Below are positions 4,059 to 4,202 of a stretch of DNA of 64,000 nt, piece after piece (position 1 is the stretch's first letter; each line of letters starts with the position of its first letter). The stretch lies in the NCBI GenBank assembly GCA_012747475.1, contig GCA_012747475.1_3928.1. One strand, 5' to 3'. Position numbers and translations under genes: made by a program. Below the pieces are notes generated by a model. It worked only from the letters and a program-made list of their open reading frames with translations, ran no database searches and was not told where the DNA came from. This DNA comes from a phage.

Positions 4059-4202
4059 AATTATCTTTGTAGATAAGTTATTAAGCTTACCTGTGAGTAT
4101 GCGACCACAAAGGGTGAAAGGGTAAATTCTAGATTTAAACCCAAAAAGGCACATCGCTACAGACCTTAAGCAAGTCTGGGTAGCTTATCTACAAAGATAA
4201 TT
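4059..4202 (+). ncRNA. structured element: ~19-bp perfect terminal helix enclosing ~105 nt
   Basis: AATTATCTTTGTAGATAAG (4059-4077) is the exact reverse complement of CTTATCTACAAAGATAATT (4184-4202); sits between the YrlA-like element and tRNA-Lys. Confidence 0.35.

Follow-up and report, generated by a model that had tools for sequence, protein, structure and literature searches.

What does an exceptionally long inverted repeat specify in a spacer between phage tRNA genes? The DNA analysed here, a stretch of 64,000 nt referred to below as the window, includes an array of 25 tRNA genes on the + strand, and within this array an earlier note, made from the letters of the sequence, had picked out a 19-bp perfect inverted repeat just upstream of tRNA-Lys. 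The repeat is there: AATTATCTTTGTAGATAAG at 4059-4077 is the exact reverse complement of CTTATCTACAAAGATAATT at 4184-4202, the spacer being 106 nt (given previously as about 105), and tRNA-Lys(UUU) (4207-4282, + strand) begins 4 nt past the second arm. The source phage is of the Felix O1 type; window positions 4040-4215 are 100% identical to Salmonella phage Felix O1 and to many other Felixounavirus records, and the window differs from the NC_005282 reference because the Felix O1 record has extra HNH insertions between tRNA genes. As a phage, Felix O1 is a classic of Salmonella typing and of biocontrol, and coliphage collections often contain its relatives; the inter-tRNA spacers of this group have so far been left unannotated or called small hypothetical proteins.

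The inverted repeat closes a conserved, folded RNA

The helix is as unusual in length as had been supposed: no perfect inverted repeat in the 64-kb window exceeds the 19-mer (scripted search, spacers of up to 200 nt), the runner-up measuring 13 nt, and 30 block shuffles of the window yielded arms of 15 nt at most. The arm sequence occurs once in the window even when up to 3 mismatches are allowed (0.04 matches expected by chance). The three additional pairs proposed in the note also exist, one of them as U·G: a repeat search extends the arms to 22 nt (4059-4080 with 4181-4202; 95% complementarity, the sole exception being the pair that is U·G in RNA), and RNAfold and RNAalifold add two further U·G pairs to give a helix of 24 bp, which we term P1 (4059-4082 with 4179-4202), composed of 19 perfect pairs followed by U·G, U-A, A-U and two more U·G. 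The element as a whole (4059-4202, 144 nt, + strand) has a folding energy on that strand of -50.2 kcal/mol, with z = -5.5 against 200 shuffles, as expected of the strongly structured RNA that the note had proposed. A chance palindrome might be looked for in AT-rich spacer DNA, and the region has a G+C content of 36%; we regard this origin as next to negligible in view of the 19-nt arm, set against the shuffle maximum of 15 nt, and of the compensated conservation of the helix in about 250 records and in distant relatives.

The note had treated the stretch enclosed by the repeat as plain; it proves to be a conserved domain of several hairpins with a candidate pseudoknot. P1 closes a junction from which the hairpins H2, H3 and H4 emerge. 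Its 5' strand (4059-4082; perfect arm to 4077, pairing to 4080 in the 22-nt form and to 4082 in the 24-nt form) is followed by the junction strand GCUUA (4085-4089); by H2 (4092-4109), a short stem (U)GUG/CAC(A) with the loop AGUAUGCGAC; by H3 (4120-4142), made of GGGUAAAUU and GAUUUAAACCC around CUA, with the cap AUUCUAGAUU; and by H4 (4160-4178), in which CAGAC and GUCUG enclose the 9-nt loop CUUAAGCAA. The P1 3' strand (4179-4202) comes directly after H4, and because no linker separates the two, P1 and H4 are able to stack coaxially. The inverted repeat is the closing helix, of 22-24 bp, of a conserved, independently folding + strand RNA domain of about 144 nt.

Neither coding nor termination accounts for the spacer. 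The only ORFs within the element are of 27-33 aa, so that the 'hypothetical proteins' annotated there in some records are unsupported. As for an intrinsic terminator, the element is absent from the terminator scan, and its AT-rich stem is followed by UAAUGGAAG.

The element is carried by about 250 phage records, belonging to Felixounavirus, Mooglevirus and Suspvirus, which divide into two sequence types, A (Felix O1, EC6) and B (pSJ21, Moogle, SUSP2); three more distant relatives add types C, D and E. Types A and B differ at about half of their interior positions, the closing stem being kept. The upstream protein gene led, by its synteny, to types C to E. Type C lies at 8280-8421 of a Logan contig (L151), type E at about 9252-9393 of another (L152), and type D at 9495-9656 of Yersinia phage vB_YenM_P778 (L153). 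When a covariance model is trained on the A and B sequences only, it recovers type C at 60.1 bits, type D at 39.1 bits (E-value about 1e-6, model E-values being rough owing to a short calibration) and type E at 25.7 bits. All three matches lie just upstream of tRNA-Lys(UUU), and in every relative examined the gap between the element and this tRNA gene is 3-14 nt.

The five types share one architecture: P1, the junction strand GCUWA, H2, a variable middle with H3, then H4 and the P1 3' strand. P1 measures 21-26 bp throughout and encloses about 96-100 nt; the H2 stem, of 3-4 bp, covaries between types and has a loop core resembling GAGUAUGC in all five; and the H4 stem, of 4-6 bp, bears the 9-nt loop CYUWAGCAA in five types out of five. 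The H3 cap AUUCUAGAUU is kept in types A and B, and in type B three positions of the lower stem are doubly compensated. How H2 folds in type B, and H3 in types C to E, is uncertain. A hammerhead-like core (CUGUGAG...GAAA), seen by eye, was rejected, as the essential A6 is missing and the core is unconserved in type B.

Wider searches add few copies. A pattern scan of IMG/VR returned nine stretches: two chance matches and seven phage copies, mostly from isolate genomes (EC6, SUSP2, Sf13, Moogle, Michonne). In a scan of a single metagenome most matches were due to chance, and three were copies identical to the window. The covariance model has no match below E = 0.2 in 65 other phage loci with DUF2828 proteins, the family to which the upstream protein belongs. 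In the searches made, every occurrence of the RNA family was in a Felix O1-like phage or a relative of one. No family of Rfam 15 overlaps 4059-4202, in either the gathering scan or the scans at E up to 10. This is a new RNA family, real, conserved, structured and without an Rfam entry.

Folding and covariation in relatives, named beforehand as the check, bear the structure out, with the helix kept in related genomes through compensatory changes. In a MAFFT alignment of the 21 distinct A and B sequences, 97.8% of cells hold standard pairs, a share that falls to 35-42% if the 3' partners are shifted by 1-3 columns; six pairs are changed on both sides, and the observed covariation score was reached by 0 of 500 shuffles, a test that, like the next, overstates significance because the sequences are related. 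P1, H2 and H4 are also predicted independently by RNAalifold. When the five types are taken together (24 distinct sequences, hand-built structural alignment), 97.4% of cells are standard pairs over 37 pairs, and double changes occur in 28 of the 37, as against a shuffle mean of 13 and with no match among 1000 shuffles; the figure of 28 is generous, because the alignment of types D and E was structural, sequence homology playing no part in it, and A and B have different H4 registers. Clear double changes in P1 are U-A to C-G at position 12 and G-C to C-G at position 19; position 4 goes from T-A via T·G to C-G, and type C has four further double changes. In H4, G-C has become A-U and A-U has become U-A. 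Two other readings of H4 were discarded: its extension by GCUA/UAGC at the expense of P1, for which type C offers A·C while keeping GCUG/CAGC for P1, and mimicry of the tRNA-Lys anticodon arm, which in Felix O1 has the same CAGA/UCUG, since the two stems do not change together in L151, L152 and L153.

The pairing also tells which strand has been selected. P1 contains about 40 G·U cells, each of which the other strand would turn into a C·A mismatch, and five A·C cells, and the covariance model gives the + strand 129.6 bits and the - strand 32.2 bits; the selected molecule is therefore the + strand RNA. These observations weigh on any explanation at the level of DNA, whether extrusion of a cruciform, binding of a protein to the dyad, recombination at the site or a miniature transposable element that ends in inverted repeats. 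The perfection of the 19-bp repeat in Felix O1 and the HNH homing endonuclease genes scattered through the array would suit such a feature, but relatives pair through G·U, a mismatch in DNA and on the other strand, and the interior helices covary; moreover, the arm is single-copy, its flanks GGT and TAAT are not duplicated, and no close relative examined lacks exactly the element. We consider a DNA-level role very improbable, and a miniature inverted-repeat transposable element in particular was rejected on its single copy, the absence of target-site duplication and the pairing via G·U.

The one loss seen is a larger deletion, in Salmonella phage SP116 (L012, about 730-790, equivalent to window about 3990-4265), which is without the element and most of tRNA-Lys and in which the T arm of a tRNA-like module described below is joined to the T arm of tRNA-Lys. 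Because SP116 has lost the element, it is dispensable for laboratory growth. Recombination between tRNA-type T arms appears to reshape the array.

One further interaction would link H4 to the junction. Its loop bases UAAGC (4167-4171) can pair with GCUUA at 4085-4089, a candidate pseudoknot of 5 bp, GCUWA:UWAGC in general form. It reads GCUUA:UAAGC in types A and C and GCUAA:UUAGC in types B and D; type E, whose H4 loop keeps the W state of types A and C, has only 4 of the 5 pairs, as do the EC6, D4 and PHB11 sequences. The variable base W differs with its partner among types, and the two have therefore co-changed, probably twice independently if the relatedness order of the upstream protein is followed. 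We consider it likely but not proven that the H4 loop pairs with the strand just after P1 as a pseudoknot. The H3 cap has a symmetry of its own: at 4127-4134 in the window, and about 8350-8359 in L151, it is a CUAG-centred palindrome, UCUAGA in types A and B and AUACUAGUAU in type C, in which the bases flanking CUAG change symmetrically; it is missing from types D and E. Such a palindrome could allow loop-loop dimerisation.

A Ro60-like gene and Y-RNA-like modules upstream

The protein gene used above as a synteny marker is an ORF at 1467-2882 (+), which ends 1.2 kb before the element and encodes 471 aa with DUF2828 and DUF7788 (Pfam); it matches PHROG 850, 'RNA-binding protein'. PDB searches by sequence with its product returned no Ro60, and there was no sequence-level TROVE match. 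The AlphaFold model, however, which has a pLDDT of 89.3 when built from a 41-sequence alignment (44 from the protein alone), finds Ro60 in all of its best ten PDB matches (Foldseek; E about 1e-7, TM 0.5-0.65), and the Foldseek matches include Xenopus Ro60, human Ro60, Deinococcus Rsr and the Ro60 of Thermus phage phiLo. The product is thus predicted to have a Ro60 fold, the likeness being at fold level only. A DxSxS MIDAS motif is invariant, and the Ro60-like proteins of element-bearing phages share only 53-62% identity. A DUF5681 ORF (1014-1385) precedes the gene, a pairing that is kept in L151-L153.

A homologue of this protein has a reported function. Phage Bas63 (JohannRWettstein) carries the element at 96.6% identity, and its gp130, the homologue of the ORF 1467-2882 product, is reported to be Ro60-like and to counter Ppl defence, the authors speculating that some of the adjacent 'tRNA genes' are Y RNAs (PMC11482910). 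The same study found that gp130 alone counters Ppl, from a plasmid or in T7, without phage RNAs (PMC11482910).

Between the Ro60-like ORF and the element, the inter-tRNA spaces are occupied by four paralogous modules on the + strand. All four, modules 1 to 3 (3213-3296, 3380-3452 and 3836-3916) and module 4 (3923-4060), are stem-bulge-stem structures; module 4 also has a permuted tRNA-like domain and a closing helix that shares A4059-A4060 with P1. The pattern common to them, NNNC-AGA-AGACCNN ... NNGGUCU-G-GNNN, comprises a 4-bp covarying outer helix, an AGA/G internal loop and a helix AGACC/GGUCU, and UUAC-AGCAA follows each of the four. The tRNA-like domain of module 4 consists of an anticodon-like arm, a T arm, a closed acceptor-like hairpin and a D arm. 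The note had called this neighbour of the repeat YrlA-like, and it does abut the stem and contain a tRNA-like domain, but it fails the Rfam YrlA model, for which none of the four modules has a score. One 85-aa minus-strand ORF overlaps it.

The stem-bulge-stem with its UUWC-AGCAA signature is found also in L151, L152, L153 and L159, and beside the DUF2828 genes of very distant phages. A loose descriptor of the module gave too many minus-strand matches, and a positional histogram of the motif was used instead: [AT][ACT]CAGCAA peaks four- to five-fold within 500 nt upstream and downstream of DUF2828 genes (63 loci, gene strand only), and the enrichment holds in phages with only 39-47% protein identity. 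Examples from IMG/VR are at 4286 and 4964 in L160; 4419, 4744 and 4960 in L185; 4717 and 4777 in L179; and 6701 and 6764 in L202. In the IMG/VR loci (L159-L233) the motif is preceded by an A-rich bulge and a helix strand. We propose it as a candidate cognate RNA motif of the Ro60-like DUF2828 family.

The element resembles these modules in its core. Its H4 loop, CUUAAGCAA, is the module signature (helix plus UUWC-AGCAA) one base shorter, and the P1/H4 stack repeats the stem-bulge-stem layout of the modules, H2 and H3 forming an enlarged 5' bulge. In every case the element is embedded among Y-like modules downstream of a Ro60-like gene; L151 keeps it while the tRNA-like module 4 is absent. One inter-tRNA spacer is now seen to hold a conserved, intricately folded RNA, set in a Y-RNA-like hairpin cluster that follows a Ro60-fold gene. 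The note had offered a Y RNA-like stem, an sRNA or an RNase III site as readings of the repeat, and the Ro60-fold gene lends weight to the Y-RNA setting.

Proposed release from the tRNA precursor and possible roles

Two sigma-70-like promoter matches, at 2901-2929 and 2992-3021 (+), lie upstream of the first tRNA gene, and the terminator scan found no terminator-like site on the + strand between them and the element. With promoters upstream and no such site between, the element would be co-transcribed with the tRNAs from about 2901 and 2992. RNase P cleavage at tRNA-Lys would then free its 3' side; its 5' side would come free either through a cut within or next to the long duplex or as the abutting Y-like RNA matures, after which P1 would shield the ends. 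On the basis of helix length, P1 is plausible as an RNase III substrate: the minimal E. coli substrate is about 20 bp, and P1 is a near-perfect duplex of that length or more.

Several other features of the array were noted. A tRNA-like remnant or uncalled tRNA lies at 3538-3606 (+), between tRNA-Asn and tRNA-Tyr, with a T-arm-like GGTGCAAGTCC fragment at 3574-3604, and another, a weak tRNA-type match ending in GGTTCAACTCCTCCGTCCCATGCCA, at 5302-5376 (+); positions 4718-4796 match the Rfam tRNA model at 31.7 bits and are uncalled by ARAGORN. A strong promoter-like site at 4456-4484 (+; TTGACA, 17-nt spacer, TATAGT) is followed by a structured non-coding stretch (4440-4800 region), 4382-4566 gives a weak match to the permuted tmRNA model (29 bits, below threshold), and an HNH endonuclease ORF lies at 4816-5160 (+). 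A second long hairpin, at 5651-5740 (+; z = -5.9), has arms of 24-26 bp and ends 1 nt before tRNA-Leu(UAG). It is kept in L151 (9906-9993), and TCTTTGTAGAT is common to the arm of that copy and to P1 of the Felix O1 element; the window's apical loop, UGUUGCUU, has UUGCUU, complementary to AAGCAA of the element's H4 loop. L153 (7647-7838) and L152 (7844-8023) have long-stem elements of their own, with arms of 23-27 bp around about 135 nt; these come 5-12 nt before tRNA-Pro, with which the array opens, and Felix O1 has no equivalent at that place.

Release might be all there is to it, with P1 serving as an RNase III site that parts the Y-like RNAs from pre-tRNA-Lys and the excised interior being without function. 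The duplex, 22-24 bp in the window and held within 21-26 bp across the five types, stops 4 nt from the tRNA-Lys 5' end; comparable stems stand before tRNA-Leu(UAG) here and in L151 and before tRNA-Pro in L152 and L153; and RNase III cuts species 1 RNA, a product of the T4 tRNA cluster, in vitro. An RNase III site, however, needs no conserved H2 and H4 loops, no covarying stems and no pseudoknot doubly compensated across phages. Processing of this kind is compatible with the explanation that we favour, as one of its steps, and is insufficient alone because the interior is conserved; as the whole story we think it unlikely.

The explanation that we favour, and to which we lean slightly, is that the element is a conserved RNA of about 144 nt, excised from the tRNA precursor and acting with the Ro60-like protein. 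The folded core would act as a ligand rather than a spacer, and its likeliest partner would be the phage Ro60-like protein, because H4 carries the shortened module signature and the P1/H4 stack mimics the module layout. Several observations weigh against the Ro60 step. The canonical Ro60-binding stem motifs, GGUCCGA of animals and GNCGAAN0-1G/CGAA of bacteria and phages, are not conserved in the element across the five types, CGAA being present in some variants only (Sf18/Sf13, EC6 group); the likeness of H4 to the module stems could be lineage-specific, since the H4 stem sequence is unconserved between types; the pseudoknot, if formed, would bury most of the AGCAA-containing loop and so compete with recognition by protein; and the action of Bas63 gp130 without phage RNAs, together with the absence of the element elsewhere among DUF2828 phages, also counts against a Ro60 ligand.

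Another reading is an independent RNA acting in trans and unrelated to the Ro60-like protein. It might titrate a host nuclease or a defence sensor as a decoy or sponge, act as an sRNA by base pairing, or self-associate through its palindromic CUAG loop. Its conserved loops are exposed, GAGUAUGC in H2 and the palindromes of H3 in types A, B and C; it persists in L151 without module 4; gp130 does without it; and it was not found in the 65 other DUF2828 loci. No target was identified for such an RNA, types D and E do not have the CUAG palindrome, and the element always lies amid Y-like modules downstream of a Ro60-like gene. We judge a role of this sort improbable, and return to an RNA that works with the Ro60-like protein.

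A more specific and decidedly tentative form of that idea is that the element represents a class of pseudoknotted, Y-RNA-like effector RNAs that work with the DUF2828 Ro60-like protein, for example by gating it or tethering it to a host nuclease. If so, the element and the UUWC-AGCAA modules would be the cognate RNA partners of a large family of phage Ro60-like proteins. In any event, the element and the AGCAA-module signature offer concrete RNA candidates for an anti-defence system of the Bas63 gp130 type.

Comparison with known RNAs

Among known RNAs the element most resembles the Y RNAs of bacteria and phages, for which YrlA and YrlB of Salmonella, Yrn1 of Deinococcus and Yrl1 and Yrl2 of Thermus phage phiLo served as comparison (PMC4201824; PMC12135203). 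Like them, it has its 5' and 3' ends paired in a long stem around a structured interior, and it is one of several paralogous small RNAs at its locus. Bacterial Y RNAs are recognised by their location on the same strand as a Ro60 orthologue and within about 4 kb of it (PMC4201824); the element is on the same strand as the Ro60-fold gene and 1.2 kb downstream, the protein being Ro60 by predicted fold. Unlike Y RNAs, it has no conserved GGUCCGA or GNCGAAN0-1G/CGAA, its candidate recognition signature being ...UUWC-AGCAA, and unlike YrlA (RF02553) it has no tRNA-like T or D arm: Rfam models gave no YrlA or tRNA match to 4059-4202 at E up to 10, and ARAGORN made no tRNA call. It is module 4, not the element, that has a tRNA-like domain as YrlA does. 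The protein of the locus, too, is a DUF2828/DUF7788 protein, unlike the annotated TROVE family of Y-RNA systems, and the locus is embedded in a tRNA array. The Y RNA thus appears to be the closest relative in kind, yet the element fails sequence-defined membership of both the Y RNAs and YrlA, and its partnership with Ro60 is one that we infer.

Two further likenesses concern its shape. The element recalls a tRNA cloverleaf in its closing stem, three hairpins and long-range pairing of the 3' hairpin loop, as well as in its place in a tRNA array; it differs in a closing stem of 22-24 bp, in having no T-loop sequence and in a pairing partner that is the junction strand and not a D loop, and neither ARAGORN nor the Rfam tRNA model finds a match on it. 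P1 resembles the RNase III stems of rRNA operons and phage early transcripts, as a duplex of at least 20 bp that flanks an excised RNA beside a mature one. Unlike in those processing stems, the interior is only about 100 nt and is itself the conserved part, and cleavage is a prediction.

In setting, the nearest parallel is phage T4, whose stable RNAs species 1 and 2 (rnaC and rnaD) are likewise small (119-139 nt), highly structured and located in a tRNA cluster, and are released from the tRNA precursor. When the T4 RNAs were folded for comparison, no resemblance in sequence to the element was seen by eye, and the likeness is in setting only; rnaC ends in a tRNA-type T arm, which the element does not have, and T4 is not known to encode a Ro60-like protein. 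The element and the modules would make a second case, after T4 species 1 and 2, of stable non-tRNA RNAs kept in phage tRNA clusters.
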